Origin: Candidatus Wukongarchaeum yapensis
GTDB taxonomy: Archaea; Asgardarchaeota; Wukongarchaeia; Wukongarchaeales; Wukongarchaeaceae
Length of the DNA: 27,598 nt
Reading direction: 5' to 3'
NCBI GenBank assembly: GCA_016840425.1
Contig: JAEOSI010000002.1
Coordinates: 1 to 27,598, forward strand
Below the pieces are notes generated by a model, which was given only the letters and a program-made list of their open reading frames with translations, did no database searches and was not told the origin of the DNA. A program made the position numbers and the translations under genes. Each line of letters opens with the position of its first letter. Position 1 is the first letter of the stretch. Shown here one piece after another: positions 9,060 to 17,449 of the stretch.

Positions 9060-9773
9060 GTGAGTTATATGGGTGATATGAGGTCTCTTGCTTTTATAGT
9101 GGGTACTTCCTTGTTTGAGTCTAAAATCTTTGAAATGTTTGAACTTGTATCTGTGGCAACTGAGTATGGAGAAGTCAGTTTATACCGGGATAACCGTTTT
9201 ATTATGGTGCCAAGACATAGCGTGAAAAAGAATATTCCCCCGCATAGAATAAACTATAAAGCGAACATATCAGCTCTAAAAAAGTTTGATGTAGAAAGGA
9301 TTGTAGCGATAAACTCTGGGGGCAGTCTTAAAAAAGAGATTGCACCGGGAATGTTAGTGGTTCCTCATGATTATATCAATCCTTGGAGAATCCAGACCTT
9401 CTTTGATAGCGAAATACGTCACATTATTCCAAGCTTAGATGAGGAGACGCGGAAATTCATAATAAGCCGTGTTAAAAAAGTGGGCGGAGATGTTGTTGAA
9501 AGAGGTGTTTACATCCAAACTACGGGTCCTCGTCTTGAAACTAGGGCGGAGATAAACTTTTTGAAAAATTTCGGCCACATTGTGGGGATGACTATGGCAA
9601 ATGAGGCTACTCTCTCAAAAGAAGCCGATATTCCTTATGCCGCTTTATGTTCTGTCGACAACTACTGTCATGGAATAGTTGAAGAAGAGTTAACCTATGA
9701 GAAAATAAGAGAGGCCTCAAAAAGAAGCCTTAGCATCATAGAAGCCTTCATAAAAAACATAATCCAAAAATAG
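9060..9773 (+). CDS. mtnP: MTAP-family purine nucleoside phosphorylase, probably 5'-methylthioinosine-specific
   Basis: PRH, PPHRINYKANI, GPRLETRAE, VGMTMANE and SVDNY motifs. The start could be 9060 (GTG), 9069 or 9078. Confidence 0.9.
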   Translation: MSYMGDMRSLAFIVGTSLFESKIFEMFELVSVATEYGEVSLYRDNRFIMVPRHSVKKNIPPHRINYKANISALKKFDVERIVAINSGGSLKKEIAPGMLVVPHDYINPWRIQTFFDSEIRHIIPSLDEETRKFIISRVKKVGGDVVERGVYIQTTGPRLETRAEINFLKNFGHIVGMTMANEATLSKEADIPYAALCSVDNYCHGIVEEELTYEKIREASKRSLSIIEAFIKNIIQK

Positions 9774-9842
9774 GTAGTAGAATTTTTTAAAGATTTCATT
9801 TTCTTTTTTGTTGTTTTTTGTTTTGTGTGTGGTGTTAGGACG

Positions 9843-11105
9843 ATGGGTAGTAGCAGTATTCTGATTAAAAATGTGTTTTTTGACGGCAAAATTACTAACA
9901 TCTATATTGAGGACGATAAGATTGTTGAGATCGGGGGTCCTAAAGTAGAAGCTGAGGCGGTTATAGATGGAAGGGATAAGGCTGCTATTCCTTCATTTTT
10001 TAACGCTCACACCCACGCTGCAATGACCTTGTTTCGGGGTTATGGAGACGATTTACCGCTACAAGAGTGGCTTGAAACAAAAATCTGGCCCACAGAAGCT
10101 AAGTTGACCGAAGAAGACGTTTATGTTGGCGCAAAATTGGCTTGTTTAGAGATGATAAAATCTGGCACCACTTTTTTTAACGACATGTACTGGCATCTTC
10201 GAGGTTCTTTAAGGGCCGTTGATGAGGCGGGGATAAGGGCTGCTTTAAGCAGCGTGGTCATAGATCTTTTCAACCCTGAAAAAGCTGAAGAACAGAAGAA
10301 AATGGTGAAAGAAGAGTTTGAGAAGTATAAAGATTTTAGTGAAAGAATACAGATTGTTTTAGGTCCTCACGCGATCTACACGGTGTCTAAAGAAACCTTA
10401 GAGTGGACCGCTGAATTCGCTGAGAAAAACAACCTGTTAATACACTTTCATTTAAGTGAGACAAAAAAAGAGGTAGATGACTGTATAAAACAGTATGGAA
10501 AGAGGCCTGTGGAATATCTTGATGATATTGGTTTTCTTAGTGAAAGGTTTATTGCTTGTCACTCGGTATGGTTAAGTGAGAGGGAGATAGAGTTGCTGGC
10601 AAAGAATGATGTTACCGTTGTCAATAATCCTACGAGTAACATGAAACTTTCCGTTGGGGACTATTTCAAATACCAGGATCTTAAAAAAGCCGGTCTTAAC
10701 ATTTGCTTGGGAACAGATGGTTGTGCTTCAAATAACAGCCTTGATATGTTTGGGGAGATGAAGTTTGCAGCACTTTTACAAAAATTTGGCGCAAATAACC
10801 CGACAGAAATCTCAGCAAAAGAAGTTTTTGATTTAGCCACGATAAACGGCGCAAAGGCTTTTCGTGTTGACGCAGGAGTTATAAGGGAGGAGAAAAAAGC
10901 AGATCTCCTACTCGTCGACTTAAAGAGACCTGAAATGACACCGCTACACGATCTCACCTCAAACATAGTTTACTCAGCAAACGCATACTGTGTTGATACA
11001 ACAATCTGTGACGGCAAAATCCTCATGCAAAACAGGAAAGTCGAATGGGAAAACGAGATAATAGAAAACGCAGAAAAAGTTGCCCAAGACTTGGTTAGAC
11101 GATGA
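9843..11105 (+). CDS. mtaD: 5'-methylthioadenosine / SAH / 5'-deoxyadenosine deaminase (amidohydrolase)
   Basis: NAHTHAAMTLFRG, PHAIY, HFHLSET, HSVWLS, NPTSNMKL and LGTDGCASNNSLDM. Follows the phosphorylase gene. Confidence 0.9.
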   Translation: MGSSSILIKNVFFDGKITNIYIEDDKIVEIGGPKVEAEAVIDGRDKAAIPSFFNAHTHAAMTLFRGYGDDLPLQEWLETKIWPTEAKLTEEDVYVGAKLACLEMIKSGTTFFNDMYWHLRGSLRAVDEAGIRAALSSVVIDLFNPEKAEEQKKMVKEEFEKYKDFSERIQIVLGPHAIYTVSKETLEWTAEFAEKNNLLIHFHLSETKKEVDDCIKQYGKRPVEYLDDIGFLSERFIACHSVWLSEREIELLAKNDVTVVNNPTSNMKLSVGDYFKYQDLKKAGLNICLGTDGCASNNSLDMFGEMKFAALLQKFGANNPTEISAKEVFDLATINGAKAFRVDAGVIREEKKADLLLVDLKRPEMTPLHDLTSNIVYSANAYCVDTTICDGKILMQNRKVEWENEIIENAEKVAQDLVRR

Positions 11106-11153: not shown

Positions 11154-11250
11154 AATTATTAATTTTGGCTTAAAAAAATATCAAAAATTATTAAAAATCA
11201 TAGGAAGATTTATTAAGGATACTTCACCTTACTTTTTTTAGGTGGTTTGT
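11154..11250 (+). promoter_or_regulatory. Promoter/operator copy A upstream of znuA
   Basis: TATA-like TTTATTAA at about 11209 preceded by a purine-rich BRE. Homologous to 12759-12856, including an exact 22-mer. Confidence 0.7.
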
Positions 11251-11299
11251 TTTAGCCGTTTCTATCACCAGGTTATTGCATATTAAGGAGGTAACAAAA

Positions 11300-12388
11300 A
11301 TCAAAAAGAGTGCTAATAGGATGATTTTTATGCTTCTGTTGGTGACGCTAATTTTTGTACCTCTTGTTCCTAGAAACACAGCGGTTCAAGCCGACACTGA
11401 TACAAAGCAAACGTCACCGAAAAACGGCACACTAAAGGTAGTGACAACGATTTCATTTGTCGAGGATTGGGCCAGCCAAATCGGAGAAGAGTTGTGGGCA
11501 GTTGAAAGCATCGTAACAGGCTTAGAAAACCCGCATACTTATGAACCTACTCCCTCCGAAATCGAGGCGGTAGCAAACTGCGATCTGTTCATTCGTATGG
11601 GATTAGAAGGTCTAGAGCCTTGGGTTGAATCAACTATTGATGCCACAGGACTTTCCGACGAAAAAATTGTCACGCTAGTGGAACAGTCTATGATTGAATA
11701 TGATGATGTGATTGGGAGTAATAACCCTCATGTCTGGATGAGCCCAGAGATCGTGAAAAATATGACGGAAAAAATCTACGATAAGTGTGTAGAAGTAGAT
11801 CCCGTCAACCAAGTGACCTACTTAGCAAATCTTAACAGTTATCATGCGGATTTAGATGCTCTATTAGACCGAATTGAAGGTAACAAAACCGCCAATTTTG
11901 ACGGAATGAAAGTCGTAGTTCATCATCCCTCGTTCAAATATCTTTTTGACCTCTTGGGCATTGAGCGGGTAGCATCCATCGAAGAGCAAGCAGGATCAGA
12001 ACCATCCGCCGAACATATAGCAGATGTCATTAAAAAAATGGAGGACGAAGATGTCAAAGTAATCGTGCATCAACCCCAGCTCGAGGACGATAAAGTAAAC
12101 GAAATCGCTCGAGATACCGGGGCAAAAATAGCGCTTTTAACCCCCTTACTAGGAGTCAAATGGGAAGAACTTGTAGTTGAACCTGAAGAACTTGGACTTG
12201 ATCCCGGAACAGAGATTCTTGACAAATATATAGACATGATCGACTATGACCTCATCGCTTTAGCTAATCCCTATGATCCGCCCGAAAAAGAAGCCATAAA
12301 CACATGGGTACTCGCAGGCATAGGCATAGTGACTATTGCTGTAATAATGCTCGTTTTTATATATTTCAGGTCGAGAAGACCAGTATAA
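11300..12388 (+). CDS. znuA: Metal ABC transporter substrate-binding protein (TroA/ZnuA cluster A-I) with C-terminal TM anchor
   Basis: ENPHTYEP, NPHVW and VHHPSFKY metal-ligand motifs, an N-terminal signal-like segment and a C-terminal hydrophobic helix followed by RSRR. The start is inferred at ATC 11300 from the SD position; the alternative is ATG 11321. Metal specificity is not established. Confidence 0.92.
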   Translation: MKKSANRMIFMLLLVTLIFVPLVPRNTAVQADTDTKQTSPKNGTLKVVTTISFVEDWASQIGEELWAVESIVTGLENPHTYEPTPSEIEAVANCDLFIRMGLEGLEPWVESTIDATGLSDEKIVTLVEQSMIEYDDVIGSNNPHVWMSPEIVKNMTEKIYDKCVEVDPVNQVTYLANLNSYHADLDALLDRIEGNKTANFDGMKVVVHHPSFKYLFDLLGIERVASIEEQAGSEPSAEHIADVIKKMEDEDVKVIVHQPQLEDDKVNEIARDTGAKIALLTPLLGVKWEELVVEPEELGLDPGTEILDKYIDMIDYDLIALANPYDPPEKEAINTWVLAGIGIVTIAVIMLVFIYFRSRRPV

Positions 12389-12589
12389 GAAAAGTAAGTA
12401 AAAAACTAAAGTTTCGATCTCTCCTTGTAAACATCTCCTTTAACAAAAGGTGAATCTCCTTTCCTTTCTTTTTTACCTATTATATTCAGCAACTACGACC
12501 ATTGAAGTGATAGGCCAATAAAAAAGATCCCCCGCATCCCAAAAAAAGGACCAAATAAGGGCTCTTTGTTCCTTTTAAATCTAAGTTCT

Positions 12590-12760
12590 TCGGTAATACC
12601 TTTTATTTCGTCAAAATCTGAATCAAAGGATATGATTTCTGAACCATTTTTATGAGCGATTTTGGCATTAACAGCGAGGTAAGGGATTATTTCTGCAGGT
12701 TTTATGGGCTTGCAAATGGCTGTTTTCAGCGGCTTAAGATCTTATCTGATGTTGGAACAA
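12590..12760 (-). pseudogene. PIN-domain (VapC-like) toxin C-terminal relic
   Basis: The minus frame reads AVNAKIAHKNGSEIISFDSDFDEIKGI, the PIN tail motif I.SFD.DFD.I.GI. Upstream sequence is frameshifted and contains stops. Confidence 0.7.
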
Positions 12761-12856
12761 TTATTAATTTACGGTTGAAAAAATATCAAAAATTATTAAT
12801 AATAATAGAAAAGTTTATTAAAGATGTTTCGCCCTCTTTTTTTTGAGGGGTGGTTT
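12759..12856 (+). promoter_or_regulatory. Promoter/operator copy B upstream of znuB-znuC
   Basis: Diverged duplicate of 11154-11250: shares AATTATTAATTT, the exact AAAAAATATCAAAAATTATTAA, TTTATTAA and T-tract+GGTGGTTT. Confidence 0.7.
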
Positions 12857-13002
12857 TTATTATACAAAAAACACGGGAAAAGGGAGTGATGTTAGTTGAT
12901 TTTGAAGAAGGAATTAGAAGGTTACAGAAATAACGATCTAGAAAGAAGATATTGTTATTTCTTTACCATAGGATTTATCCTATAAGGAGATGATTGTAAA
13001 GA

Positions 13003-14001
13003 ATGACGGATTTTTTACATTTTTTCAATGCTTTGAGGAAATATGCATTTTTACAACGAGCATTGGTTTCAGCAGTCGTCGTCGGTATCATATGTTCTCT
13101 CATCGGCGTATTCATACTTTTACGCAGAATGGTGTTCCTAGGACAAGGCATTGCTCACTCCGCCTTCGCAGGAGCCGCATTGGGTCTCTTGCTGGGAATC
13201 GATCCTCTGCTTACCATTCTCCTGTTTTCTGTCTTTTCAGCCATTAGTATTGGGTATGTAGAAGAGAAAAAACTAGTAGAAAGCGAAGTCATGATAGGCG
13301 TAATTTTTTCCTTCTTCATGGCGCTTGCTATTTTGTTTATTGGCATGATGGAAGTTTATAGCACTGATGTTATCTCTATTCTTTTCGGGAATATTCTGAT
13401 TATTACTCAAGAAAGACTTATTCTTTTCCTCATATTTTCTGCTATGATTCTTTTGTTGTTGTTTATGATCAAGAAAGAACTGTTCTTTATGACTTTTGAC
13501 ATAGAGCTAGCGGAAGTCTCAGGAGTCCCAGTACGTTTTCTAACCTACTTGTTTTTAGTCATGGTTTCCGTGACCATATCCGTTTCCTTAAGAGCTATAG
13601 GGGCAATTCTGGTTTTTGCGATGATTATAACCCCCGCAGCAGCGGCTTACCAGTGGACTTATCATCTCAATAGGATGATGATCTTGTCTGTGTTCTTCGG
13701 CGTGTTCTCAGCAGTTTTCGGGTTATATCTTTCCTACACCTTTGATCTGCCTTCTGGATCCACGATAGTATCAGCAGTCACTGCAATCTTCGTAATATCA
13801 TTCCTTTTTTCTCCGAAAAGAATGGCTTCAAAAAGAACCATCCAGGAATGCCCCTACTGTAAGGATTACCTTTTGGAAGGAGAAGAATGCCAGAGGCCTG
13901 AATGTATAGCTGCTGGCATTCTACACAGGCACATAGATCACGAGATCAGCATCGATAAAAAACACCTCCCCAAAAAAAAGCCTACTAAACACGATCATTA
14001 A
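13003..14001 (+). CDS. znuB: Metal ABC transporter permease (ZnuB/MntB) with a Cys/His-rich C-terminal extension
   Basis: GQGIAHSAFAG, ILFGNIL, FDIELAEVSG and IGAILVFAMIITPAAAA. Tail CPYC-x9-CQRPEC followed by six His. Confidence 0.95.
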   Translation: MTDFLHFFNALRKYAFLQRALVSAVVVGIICSLIGVFILLRRMVFLGQGIAHSAFAGAALGLLLGIDPLLTILLFSVFSAISIGYVEEKKLVESEVMIGVIFSFFMALAILFIGMMEVYSTDVISILFGNILIITQERLILFLIFSAMILLLLFMIKKELFFMTFDIELAEVSGVPVRFLTYLFLVMVSVTISVSLRAIGAILVFAMIITPAAAAYQWTYHLNRMMILSVFFGVFSAVFGLYLSYTFDLPSGSTIVSAVTAIFVISFLFSPKRMASKRTIQECPYCKDYLLEGEECQRPECIAAGILHRHIDHEISIDKKHLPKKKPTKHDH

Positions 14002-14034
14002 CAGCCCAAAAATTAGGAAAAAGGAGAGTTTTAG

Positions 14035-14814
14035 TTGACTATAACCAAACAAAAAGTTAAAGAAACCATTTATCAACCCCTAGAGAAAGGGGAGCCAGTA
14101 ATATGTCTACAGGATGTTGCAGTAGCTTATCAAGCGAATGTCGCGATTTTTGACATAAACTTGGATGTTTATCCAGGTGAATGCCTTGGAATCGTAGGGC
14201 CCAATGCCTCGGGAAAAACCACTTTATTAAAAACCATCCTTGGGGCTCTTAAACCCATTCAAGGGTCTGTTCAGATCTTCGGAGACAAGTTCTCACCAAA
14301 AACTTCGCACATGATCCGCTCCAAAATCTCTTATATACCTCAGCTTCAAGCTATCGATCGAAACTTTCCTGCCTTAGTAGAAGATGTTGTAGCAATGGGT
14401 CGATACTCGAAAGCTGGGCTCTTTAGACCCCTCAACTCAGAAGACTGGGAAAAGATCTATGAAGCTCTGGAAGCAGTAGGGATGAAAAAGTTAGCCAAAC
14501 GACCCATCGGACATCTTAGCGGCGGACAACAACAGAAAGTCATGATCGCCCGAGCTCTAGCCAATGAACCAGAAATCCTACTGCTAGACGAACCAACGAC
14601 CGCCCTAGACTTTAAAATGGTGAGATCTGTGGTTGATTTGGTTAAAAAACTTCACGAGGAAAGAGAACTCACCATAGTCATAGTAAGCCATGATATCAAG
14701 CTATTGAGGGAATACTGTACGAGAATAGCCGCCATGGATAAGAAAATCGTCTGGAAAGGAGACCCGCACGATCCCGACCTAGATATTATAATCGAGGAGA
14801 TATTTTTACGCTAA
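14035..14814 (+). CDS. znuC: Metal ABC transporter ATPase (ZnuC/MntA)
   Basis: Walker A GPNASGKT, LSGGQQQ, LLLDEPT and the SHD switch. TTG start after GGAG. Confidence 0.95.
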   Translation: MTITKQKVKETIYQPLEKGEPVICLQDVAVAYQANVAIFDINLDVYPGECLGIVGPNASGKTTLLKTILGALKPIQGSVQIFGDKFSPKTSHMIRSKISYIPQLQAIDRNFPALVEDVVAMGRYSKAGLFRPLNSEDWEKIYEALEAVGMKKLAKRPIGHLSGGQQQKVMIARALANEPEILLLDEPTTALDFKMVRSVVDLVKKLHEERELTIVIVSHDIKLLREYCTRIAAMDKKIVWKGDPHDPDLDIIIEEIFLR

Positions 14815-15051
14815 ACTTTTAAAACAGAGAACTAATCAAGTCAACTGGTCTAATCTGGTTAAGAATGGTATGCTTTTATAAAATGCTGGGAGAATTCGCG
14901 ATAATACACTGCAAATATAAATCATTAGAAGAGGGCTTCCTAAAAATATTTAAGAAACGCATGGTTCTTCCCCTTGCAAAACCCTCTAAAAAACATAAAA
15001 ACCGGAAAAACTTCACTACAAAAGAGTTACTGCGAAAAGAGGTATTAGAAA

Positions 15052-15495
15052 TTGAGTTCAAAAAAATATGAGAAAAATAGGAAAGAAACTAATGAAGAAA
15101 AAAAGGCCGAAATAATTTCATTAAGCCTCCCACAAACCCTTATTGATCAAATCGACAACATTCAAAACGATATAGGATTTTCAAGCAGGTCTGAGGTAAT
15201 AAGAAATGCCATAAGATCATACATATCCGAACTACGCGCCGAAGAAGTCATCGACGGCCTCCTAGAAGGCGCTATAATAACCTCCTATAACTTAAAAGCC
15301 GGAGCAGGCCTGTCAGAGATCAAACACAACCAACTCCCCTTAATCCGAGCATTTCTACACTCACACTTCGCCAATACGGACAAATGTTTAGAAATCCTAG
15401 TAGTATCCGGCCCAAATGAAAAAATAAAAAACCTAATCAAAGCCATAAAATCCCAAAAAGGAGTAGAACTAGTAAAATTCACCTTAATCCCCTAA
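15052..15495 (+). CDS. nikR: NikR-family ribbon-helix-helix metalloregulator
   Basis: RHH domain IISLSLP..L...D......GFSSRSEVIRNAIR and C-domain IKH...LHSHF..DKCLE with the His/His/His/Cys ligand set. TTG start after GAGGT; no internal Met. Confidence 0.92.
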   Translation: MSSKKYEKNRKETNEEKKAEIISLSLPQTLIDQIDNIQNDIGFSSRSEVIRNAIRSYISELRAEEVIDGLLEGAIITSYNLKAGAGLSEIKHNQLPLIRAFLHSHFANTDKCLEILVVSGPNEKIKNLIKAIKSQKGVELVKFTLIP

Positions 15496-16328: not shown

Positions 16329-16748
16329 CTAATATTTATAGCCTCGTACTTCTTCTGGTTTTGATTCCACTCCGAGCCCTAGAGCGATGCGATTGACGAA
16401 GTTAAAGTAACTTGTAACCAAATTTATGTTTAGAATTTCTTCGTCTGAAAACTCCGAGTCTCGTAAATTGTTAATATCAGCCTGATTAATTGCATGGGGT
16501 TTTTTTATCAATTTGAATGCATATTCAAGCATTTTGTGAGTTCTTTCAGGTAGATCAAGAGATCTAAAGTCTTGGATTAATTTCTTTACACGTTTGTTAT
16601 CTTTCCAGTAATTATTTAATGCTTCTGCATGATCTTTCATAGCTTGAGGGTTCAAACTGTGAACTTTCAAGATATTCCCTACCTTGCCACGCTTTTCTTT
16701 TAACTCCCCATTAGCTTTCCCCTCATCTATAACGCTAATCCAAGGCAT
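16329..16748 (-). pseudogene. AhpD/CMD-family peroxidase-related protein with in-frame deletions, no Cys left
   Basis: MPWISVIDE...NILKVHSLNP, MLEYAFKL and FSDEEIL...TSYFNFVNRIALGLGV match the family. The segment carrying the CxxC helix is absent (AMKDH joined directly to AEAL). The frame is open, so expression is possible. Confidence 0.75.
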
Positions 16749-17172: not shown

Positions 17173-17449
17173 TAGATTTTCCCTAAACTCTTATCAAGAA
17201 CCTTACTCGCTCTATTTAAAGTAATACCACACACCTTATCATTTAATTCTACCACTAAGACATCATAATAAACGAATTCCAATATCAAAACTACTCTGAC
17301 AGGGTTCAATTCGGGTTAACAGTTGCGGAAAAGTTTAGAAAGAATGGAGTCTTCCTACGAAAAATCTTGAGCGAAGCAAGGGATTTGGTCAAGCTTAAGC
17401 GAGTCTTATGCTCGGTTTTAGGCGATGTTTTCTGCATTCTTTTCATCAA

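Follow-up and report, generated by a model that had tools for sequence, protein, structure and literature searches.

Which metal does a NikR-type regulator sense when its gene lies behind those of a zinc-type importer? This question is raised by positions 11154-15495 of a 27,598-nt stretch of DNA from Candidatus Wukongarchaeum yapensis (the window, contig C61 of a 2.16-Mb archaeal assembly that is 92% complete). Genes for a cluster A-I metal-binding protein, an ABC-3 permease, an ATPase and a protein with ribbon-helix-helix (RHH) and NikR_C domains follow one another there, all on the + strand. Among protein matches that bear a name, almost every one is Asgard, in keeping with an Asgard host. 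The original prediction for this locus left a choice between an importer of Ni/Co and a NikR that had been repurposed. Our data support repurposing much better, but as a property of an old subfamily and not as a local event. The genes, the metal ligands, the subfamily, its operator motif, the synteny and the stump of a second regulator within the cassette are established by sequence. From the gene context we propose, with a probability of about 0.6, that the window regulator is a zinc-sensing repressor of zinc uptake. The gene order is identical in an independently assembled relative (L302), and L040 agrees up to the end of its contig inside the ATPase gene. Since contigs from three of the four sequencing runs also give depth in all 30 bins, misassembly is unlikely.

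The regulator gene (15052-15495, + strand) encodes a member of the NikR structural family. Both Pfam domains score above their cut-offs (PF01402, 27.8 bits; PF08753, 48.3 bits), and the predicted structure has the NikR fold (predicted local distance difference test, pLDDT, 91.7; Foldseek match 2BJ3, E 1e-10). A model of four copies scored 0.77 against 0.02 for the best control, with contact agreement of at least 91% and pLDDT of at least 78, although this pass may reflect likeness to solved NikR; 20 of 30 solved pairs attain the mark for the score, as does 1 of 23 single chains. His92, His103, His105 and Cys112 fall on the four ligands (His/His/His/Cys) of NikR from P. horikoshii and H. pylori, so the intact ligands that had been predicted are present. 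The assumption that the protein is an ordinary NikR did not hold. Ile21 aligns with Arg12 in the DNA-reading ribbon of H. pylori NikR, and the position is Ile or Val throughout the subfamily. The protein falls below all NCBIfam NikR cut-offs (94 against 111, 60.9 against 105, 60.5 against 83 and 50.6 against 175). A second, canonical NikR is encoded on contig C57 (NikR_C 103.8 bits, compared with 49 for the window protein) and cbiM lies on contig C133; the window protein is not the nickel regulator of this genome. It belongs to the NikR structural family, yet it departs from a canonical nickel NikR in the ribbon Arg/Lys, the curated cut-offs, the operator and the targets. In the subfamily without the ribbon Arg (non-Arg), Gln before His92 and His at position 81, which occur in 92% and 90% of Arg-type proteins respectively, are mostly lost, and the third metal-site His (His105) is replaced in about one fifth of the members. 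A different coupling to the metal is therefore possible.

The neighbours of this subfamily across archaea point to zinc-type transporters. NikR_C proteins were collected with a search profile seeded with non-Arg members, and the relatives so found are not independent. The first set comprised 128 distinct proteins, mostly from about 80 Asgard genomes, which were grouped by the ribbon residue before their neighbours were counted. Among the 73 non-Arg proteins (mostly Asgard), the neighbour was a cluster A-I ABC transporter in 37, a P1B ATPase in 22, ZIP in 3, CDF in 2, CbiM in 1 and none in 8, which places a metal importer or exporter of ABC, ZIP, P1B or CDF type beside 64 of them. The 55 Arg/Lys-type proteins stood beside CbiM (15), ABC (2), CDF (1) or none of these (37). 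Several f12 genomes carry three kinds of regulator together, one ABC-linked, one P1B-linked and one canonical. A second set covered named genomes of Thermoplasmatota, ANME-1, Methanobacteriaceae, Bathyarchaeia, Altiarchaeota, Nitrosotalea, Woesearchaeota and Micrarchaeota, and also took in Methanothermus fervidus, Methanobacterium and haloarchaeal plasmids. Here the neighbours were ABC (39), a 210-aa membrane protein (26), ZIP (4) and COG0523 (1); 11 had none, in 7 the contig was too short, and CbiM was never found. The adjacency is thus not peculiar to this genome. The pairing of regulator and transporter recurs in Asgard, Methanobacteriales, ANME-1, Thermoplasmatota, Bathyarchaeia, Altiarchaeota and DPANN.

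Trees were built as a quick tree with SH-aLRT support and with FastTree. All Arg-type proteins fall on one side (SH-aLRT 85, quick tree). On a joint tree of both sets the partner changed at least 15 times, with ZIP arising three times, and the evidence proper lies in these repeated swaps among zinc-type families. Ten of the 12 partner P1B ATPases that were read carry CPC, Lys and DG motifs, which we take to be those of the Zn/Cd/Pb type, and the other two differ.

The subfamily is also marked by its upstream DNA. TTAWTAA-N15-TTAWTAA, with at most one mismatch, occurred in 39 of 68 non-Arg upstream regions (counted outside the lineage of the window) compared with 1 of 55 Arg-type regions and 0.4 in shuffles. 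When N14 or N15 was allowed in the second set, the operator was found in 72 of 84, against 2.5. The spacing of the half-sites in non-Arg promoters is fixed at 22 bp (or 21 bp). Upstream of Arg-type NikR the commonest palindrome was approximately GTAWTAC-N14-GTAWTAC (11/55), close to the published NikR sites GTATGAT-N13/14-ATCATAC and GTGTTAC-N13/14-GTAACAC (PMC545781). The geometry of the TTAWTAA operator would therefore be NikR-like, with the outer G/C replaced by T/A alongside the change of Arg to Ile. If so, a single residue, Arg to Ile, may pair with the change of G to T in the operator, which offers a simple hypothesis for specificity.

In the window this operator is present twice, as the original prediction of twin elements had supposed. 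The two elements form a real 101-nt repeat with 78% identity, 1605 nt apart (BLAST E 1.6e-21), and BLAST found no third full-length copy in the genome. Copy 1 (11156-11217, + strand) has half-sites at 11156, 11178 (weak), 11188 and 11210, the last of which is a TATA-like box with a purine-rich stretch resembling a B recognition element just before it. Its core (11188-11216, no strand assigned) is an exact predicted operator with a matrix score of 20.3, and the element is kept upstream of ZIP in L033-L035. Copy 2 (12761-12822, + strand) contains the exact core at 12793-12821, scores 20.6 and is kept in L302 and L303. With a matrix trained without the window's own lineage, the cores of copies 2 and 1 rank first and second in the 2.16 Mb, and the window holds two exact matches where 0.03 would be expected. 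The copies differ at about 20% of positions, yet all four strong half-sites are kept. No operator was found directly before the regulator gene.

We suggest the following mechanism, in which DNA binding, repression and co-transcription of the regulator are what we infer. The regulator would sense zinc as a NikR-fold tetramer and repress zinc uptake. Metal at the His3Cys site would cause its two RHH dimers to grip a pair of TTAWTAA half-sites separated by two turns of the helix. Since the TATA-like box, which follows the purine-rich stretch, doubles as the downstream half-site, binding would repress, with the regulator blocking the TATA-binding protein and transcription factor B at both promoters. 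Promoter 1 would drive the binding-protein gene, and promoter 2 would drive the permease and ATPase genes and probably the regulator too; at low zinc the importer would be made. The window protein very probably binds the operator and controls the cassette. The motif could instead be a mere AT-rich TATA promoter with a neutral duplication, the cassette being controlled by another factor such as a DtxR paralogue. The coincidence of the downstream half-site with the TATA box would suit this, and two further observations lend it weight and count against our proposal as well: four further exact operator matches lie elsewhere in the genome, none at metal genes, and three other DtxR genes are present. 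It would not account for a fixed spacing seen in 39 of 68 promoters and in 1 of 55 of the sister family, for half-sites retained in both diverged copies, or for donor cassettes with an intact DtxR whose promoters do not have the site. We consider it highly improbable.

Control at transcription, one of three levels named in the original prediction, is thus supported by the sequence. For control at translation we found nothing beyond a conserved ATC codon before the binding-protein gene. RNA-level control was rejected because neither leader folds better than its shuffled versions (z 0.14 and 0.10), and a scan for sigma-70 promoters and terminators gave results at chance level. We could not show that the regulon extends further in this genome; the other exact sites lie before two HEAT-repeat paralogues, in one intergenic gap or inside a gene. 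At the HEAT-repeat paralogues (C34:4688 and C4:10751) the exact operator covers a TATA-like box in near-identical promoters, which may be chance or an unexplained target. A P1B-2 type ATPase gene on another contig (C164:12139-14100, + strand) is preceded at 12065-12093 by a weak site resembling the operator, with a TATA-like box about 40 nt further downstream. That site scores 12.5, lower than 28 other places in the genome, and the ATPase is a possible member of the regulon.

The transporter itself resembles zinc importers. PF01297, PF00950 and an ABC ATPase occur together at the locus, so the cluster A-I set is complete by Pfam. The binding protein (11300-12388 within the open reading frame (ORF) 11276-12388, + strand; PF01297) has the three predicted His ligands, His87, His152 and His217, with Thr289 in the region of the fourth ligand, and its closest solved structure is the zinc-binding 2OV1 (E 1.5e-26). 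It has neither the Glu/Asp pair typical of Mn/Fe types nor a His-rich loop, which agrees with the three-His zinc subtype, and it ends in a membrane anchor. The permease (13003-14001, + strand; PF00950) is followed by the ATPase (14035-14814, + strand; PF00005). The window transporter was far below every cut-off of the curated ZnuA, ZnuB and AztC equivalog models, which are bacterial. The Cys/His tail of the permease (about 13822-14001) had been singled out in the original prediction, and all 15 Asgard homologues compared keep Cys283, Cys286, Cys296 and His330. Because three Cys and a terminal His are kept across Asgard, the tail probably binds metal. It arrived with the cassette and has no specific tie to the window regulator.

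Several observations weigh against a zinc sensor. The window regulator retains the His3Cys site on which square-planar Ni(II) selectivity depends, and in the NikRs studied neither Zn nor Co brings about DNA binding (PMC11672702); NikR of E. coli, for one, is not activated by Zn. The ZIP, CDF, P1B and cluster A-I families also transport Mn, Fe, Co and Cd. The ribbon Arg was lost about once on the tree, so that the split between Arg and non-Arg proteins is a single contrast among kin that are not independent. One non-Arg subclade, in f18 (L085, L087, L090 and L094), has cbiM about 1 kb downstream, beyond other genes, and the operator was not seen where this was read. Haloarchaeal relatives stand beside CobW GTPases near a cobalamin gene. 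In about 24 of 73 cases the partner binding protein does not have the third His in the alignment.

These points bear on two other effectors. The protein may still be a nickel sensor, in which case the ABC transporter or ZIP would import nickel, or nickel would cross-repress a zinc importer. All four nickel ligands and the NikR fold agree with this, as does a 2024 review in which NikR proteins sense nickel only (PMC11672702). A nickel sensor is nevertheless difficult to reconcile with the separate canonical NikR and cbiM of this genome, with cbiM beside only 1 of 73 proteins in the first set and 0 in the second, with the loss of the Gln before His92 and of His 81 in most members, and with partners that include Zn-type exporters. 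We regard nickel as quite improbable. The regulator and operator could also work as proposed in response to Co, Mn or a broad signal of Zn, Co and Cd, and the importer would then serve general uptake of divalent metals. The promiscuity of the partner families, the CobW-linked haloarchaeal members, the DtxR-family regulators of the donor cassettes (often Mn or Fe sensors) and the replacement of the third metal-site His in about one fifth of the subfamily would fit such an effector. On the other side are a binding protein without the Glu/Asp ligands of Mn/Fe types, partner P1B ATPases that mostly carry Zn/Cd/Pb-type motifs and not those of the Co/Fe P1B-4 type, and a Cys ligand that disfavours Mn. 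Another metal is therefore unlikely, though less so than nickel, and zinc remains the effector that we favour. A Fur-family regulator gave no match above cut-off in this genome at 92% completeness.

Two of these departures were seen in detail. On a Halorubrum ezzemoulense megaplasmid (L181:2686-3903) the relative and two GTPases are divergently arranged, CobW/COG0523 being the one next to it, near a gene for cobalt-factor II methyltransferase; this halophile branch may sense cobalt. In about 24 regulator-linked binding proteins (L013, L018, L044 and L073-L107; f6 and f12) Phe occupies the position of the third His, which reflects either an unusual cluster A-I site or a shift in the alignment.

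Comparison with sister lineages suggests how the locus arose. In the four closest orthologues of the regulator (74-79% identity) a ZIP gene lies directly upstream. DNA is available for three of them; their flanking genes correspond to those of the window, and similarity breaks off at 11220, immediately behind the TATA box, to return at 15036. The replaced segment (11221-15035, + strand) is thus occupied by one ZIP gene in sister lineages, in which the promoter and operator before ZIP are kept. The next relatives of the ABC cassette (permease 43-65%) are from other Asgard families. A DtxR-family gene accompanies 10 of the 14 cassettes read, several times directly before the permease gene, and the operator was at the promoter in none. 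Behind operator copy 2 the window holds a decayed 5' stump of such a gene (12889-12993, + strand; about 35 codons). The stump shares 11 of 17 residues with L289, a likeness with p about 0.001 when tested on shuffles and reached by 0 of 3000 windows of the genome, and the region reads through without a stop in the sister strains L302 and L303. The ancestral slot would then have held ZIP and the regulator, and a cluster A-I cassette from another Asgard lineage would have replaced ZIP just after the TATA box; the DtxR gene of the cassette would have decayed and the operator-promoter been copied in front of both cassette halves. This course of events, in which the ABC cassette displaced an original ZIP, DtxR decayed and the promoter was duplicated, is the simplest and is likely. 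Neither the swap nor the stump figured in the original prediction. The direction is likely rather than proven because the candidate 5' scar of ZIP at 11240-11265 is weak (p 0.011-0.017). No ZIP gene was found in the window genome or in G001 (87% complete), and neither ZnuA nor a non-Arg paralogue was found in G001. The Asgard DtxR-family regulators of the cassette (L288-L301) do not have the usual Glu-His pair, keep a Ser-Cys motif and often have C-terminal Cys pairs; they are possibly thiolate zinc sensors.

The other features of the locus concern the start of the binding protein and its surroundings. An AUC start had been suggested for this gene and is plausible: 7 nt behind a Shine-Dalgarno sequence GGAGGT (element 11287-11302, + strand) stands an in-frame ATC (11300) that is kept in the two relatives L167 and L302 and has the same spacing as the regulator start in L033 and L034. 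It would add a basic n-region to the protein, and homologues start with a short basic n-region there. Gene callers choose the next ATG, at 11321. The spacer after this gene (12389-12740) varies among strains: L302 and L303 have its short element 12472-12508 at another position, and the L302 spacer matches window positions 17206-17267, possibly as a small mobile remnant. A PIN/VapC remnant at 12493-12741 seemed plausible by eye and was rejected as unproven, since it has no Pfam match and is not kept in L302. On the left flank, PNP/MTAP-like phosphorylase and amidohydrolase genes (9060-11105, + strand) are conserved in all sister lineages read, and we saw no link to metal control. A 139-aa ORF at 16329-16748 (- strand) has no Pfam match; its orthologues are longer CMD-family proteins (142-185 aa; PF02627), and synteny suggests an internal deletion.

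Two further kinds of locus extend the picture beyond ABC importers. Promoters of P1B/CDF exporters (L010, L058, L060, L066, L030 and L108) carry TATTAA followed 3-4 nt later by GTGCTA, which is absent from importer promoters and may mark the opposite sign of control. Exporter promoters have a variant site just upstream of the TATA-like box, a position that may suit activation. In place of znuABC or ZIP, a 210-aa membrane protein is the divergent partner at L038:5280-5912 (- strand), L198:2787-3413 (- strand) and 24 more loci, with the operator upstream. It has an invariant His, Cys-Cys and Asp and belongs to no Pfam family; Foldseek gave no match for its fold, and the best Z, 10.1 to TRIC, was under the bar for helical bundles. 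We consider it a candidate new metal importer. On a broader scale, the NikR-fold subfamily might be a main zinc sensor of archaea and a counterpart of Zur and ZntR, one clade repressing importers (ZnuABC, ZIP and the 210-aa protein) over the TATA box and a sister clade controlling P1B-2/CDF exporters from an upstream site. The case for this proposal is evenly balanced.

NikR is cited as an example of metal selectivity based on geometry, with nickel as the only metal sensed (PMC11672702). If our reading is correct, a subfamily with the same four ligands, a new operator and zinc-type targets provides a direct test of that rule. It would then be the first member of the NikR family whose cognate metal is not nickel, on unchanged His3Cys ligands, and it would suggest how zinc uptake is controlled in archaea without Zur. 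Many of these proteins are annotated as nickel-responsive regulators and may be mislabelled. Cultured hosts of the subfamily exist in Methanobacteriales. The locus would also record an exchange of transporter and regulator, in which ZIP gave way to an ABC cassette, DtxR was lost and the resident operator came to be used twice.

The original prediction of an undescribed system stands in part. A literature search, which did not cover subscription papers and could have missed a RegPrecise entry, brought up no account of the subfamily, its operator or its regulon and no follow-up beyond Kaster et al. 2011. In one sentence that paper suggested that a NikR homologue beside znuABC in Methanothermobacter (MTH603 / MTBMA_c09830) is zinc-responsive, and it gives no operator, subfamily, regulon or test (PMC3087415). 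The subfamily proteins of Methanothermus fervidus and Methanobacterium share the MTH603-type layout, from which MTH603 itself would be a member. The MTH603 genes are divergent from znuABC, whereas the window regulator is downstream of its transporter. Like NikR of E. coli, P. horikoshii (2BJ1/2BJ3) and H. pylori, the window regulator combines RHH with an ACT-like NikR_C domain, a His3Cys site and a predicted tetramer, has two half-sites about two turns apart and is linked to a metal importer. Unlike NikR, it has Ile/Val for the ribbon Arg and half-sites of TTAWTAA and not ones starting with GT, its subfamily partners cluster A-I ABC, ZIP, P1B and CDF rather than Nik/CbiM, and it coexists with a canonical NikR. 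The proposed system resembles Zur at znuABC in having an uptake repressor at the importer promoter and a paralogue clade at P1B/CDF exporters, as in the Zur/ZntR pair; its fold is unrelated to that of Zur, whose Fur family had no match above cut-off in this genome. Leyn and Rodionov in 2015 reportedly described archaeal ZntR as DtxR-family control of cluster A-I transporters. Similarly to cassettes under DtxR-family control (MntR/TroR), the nearest Asgard cassettes keep an intact DtxR, often directly before the permease, but the window retains only the stump. The binding protein is similar to ZnuA of the Synechocystis type (2OV1/1PQ4) in having three His and no acidic fourth ligand, and differs from it in lacking the His-rich loop, in its C-terminal membrane anchor and in a permease partner with a Cys/His tail.

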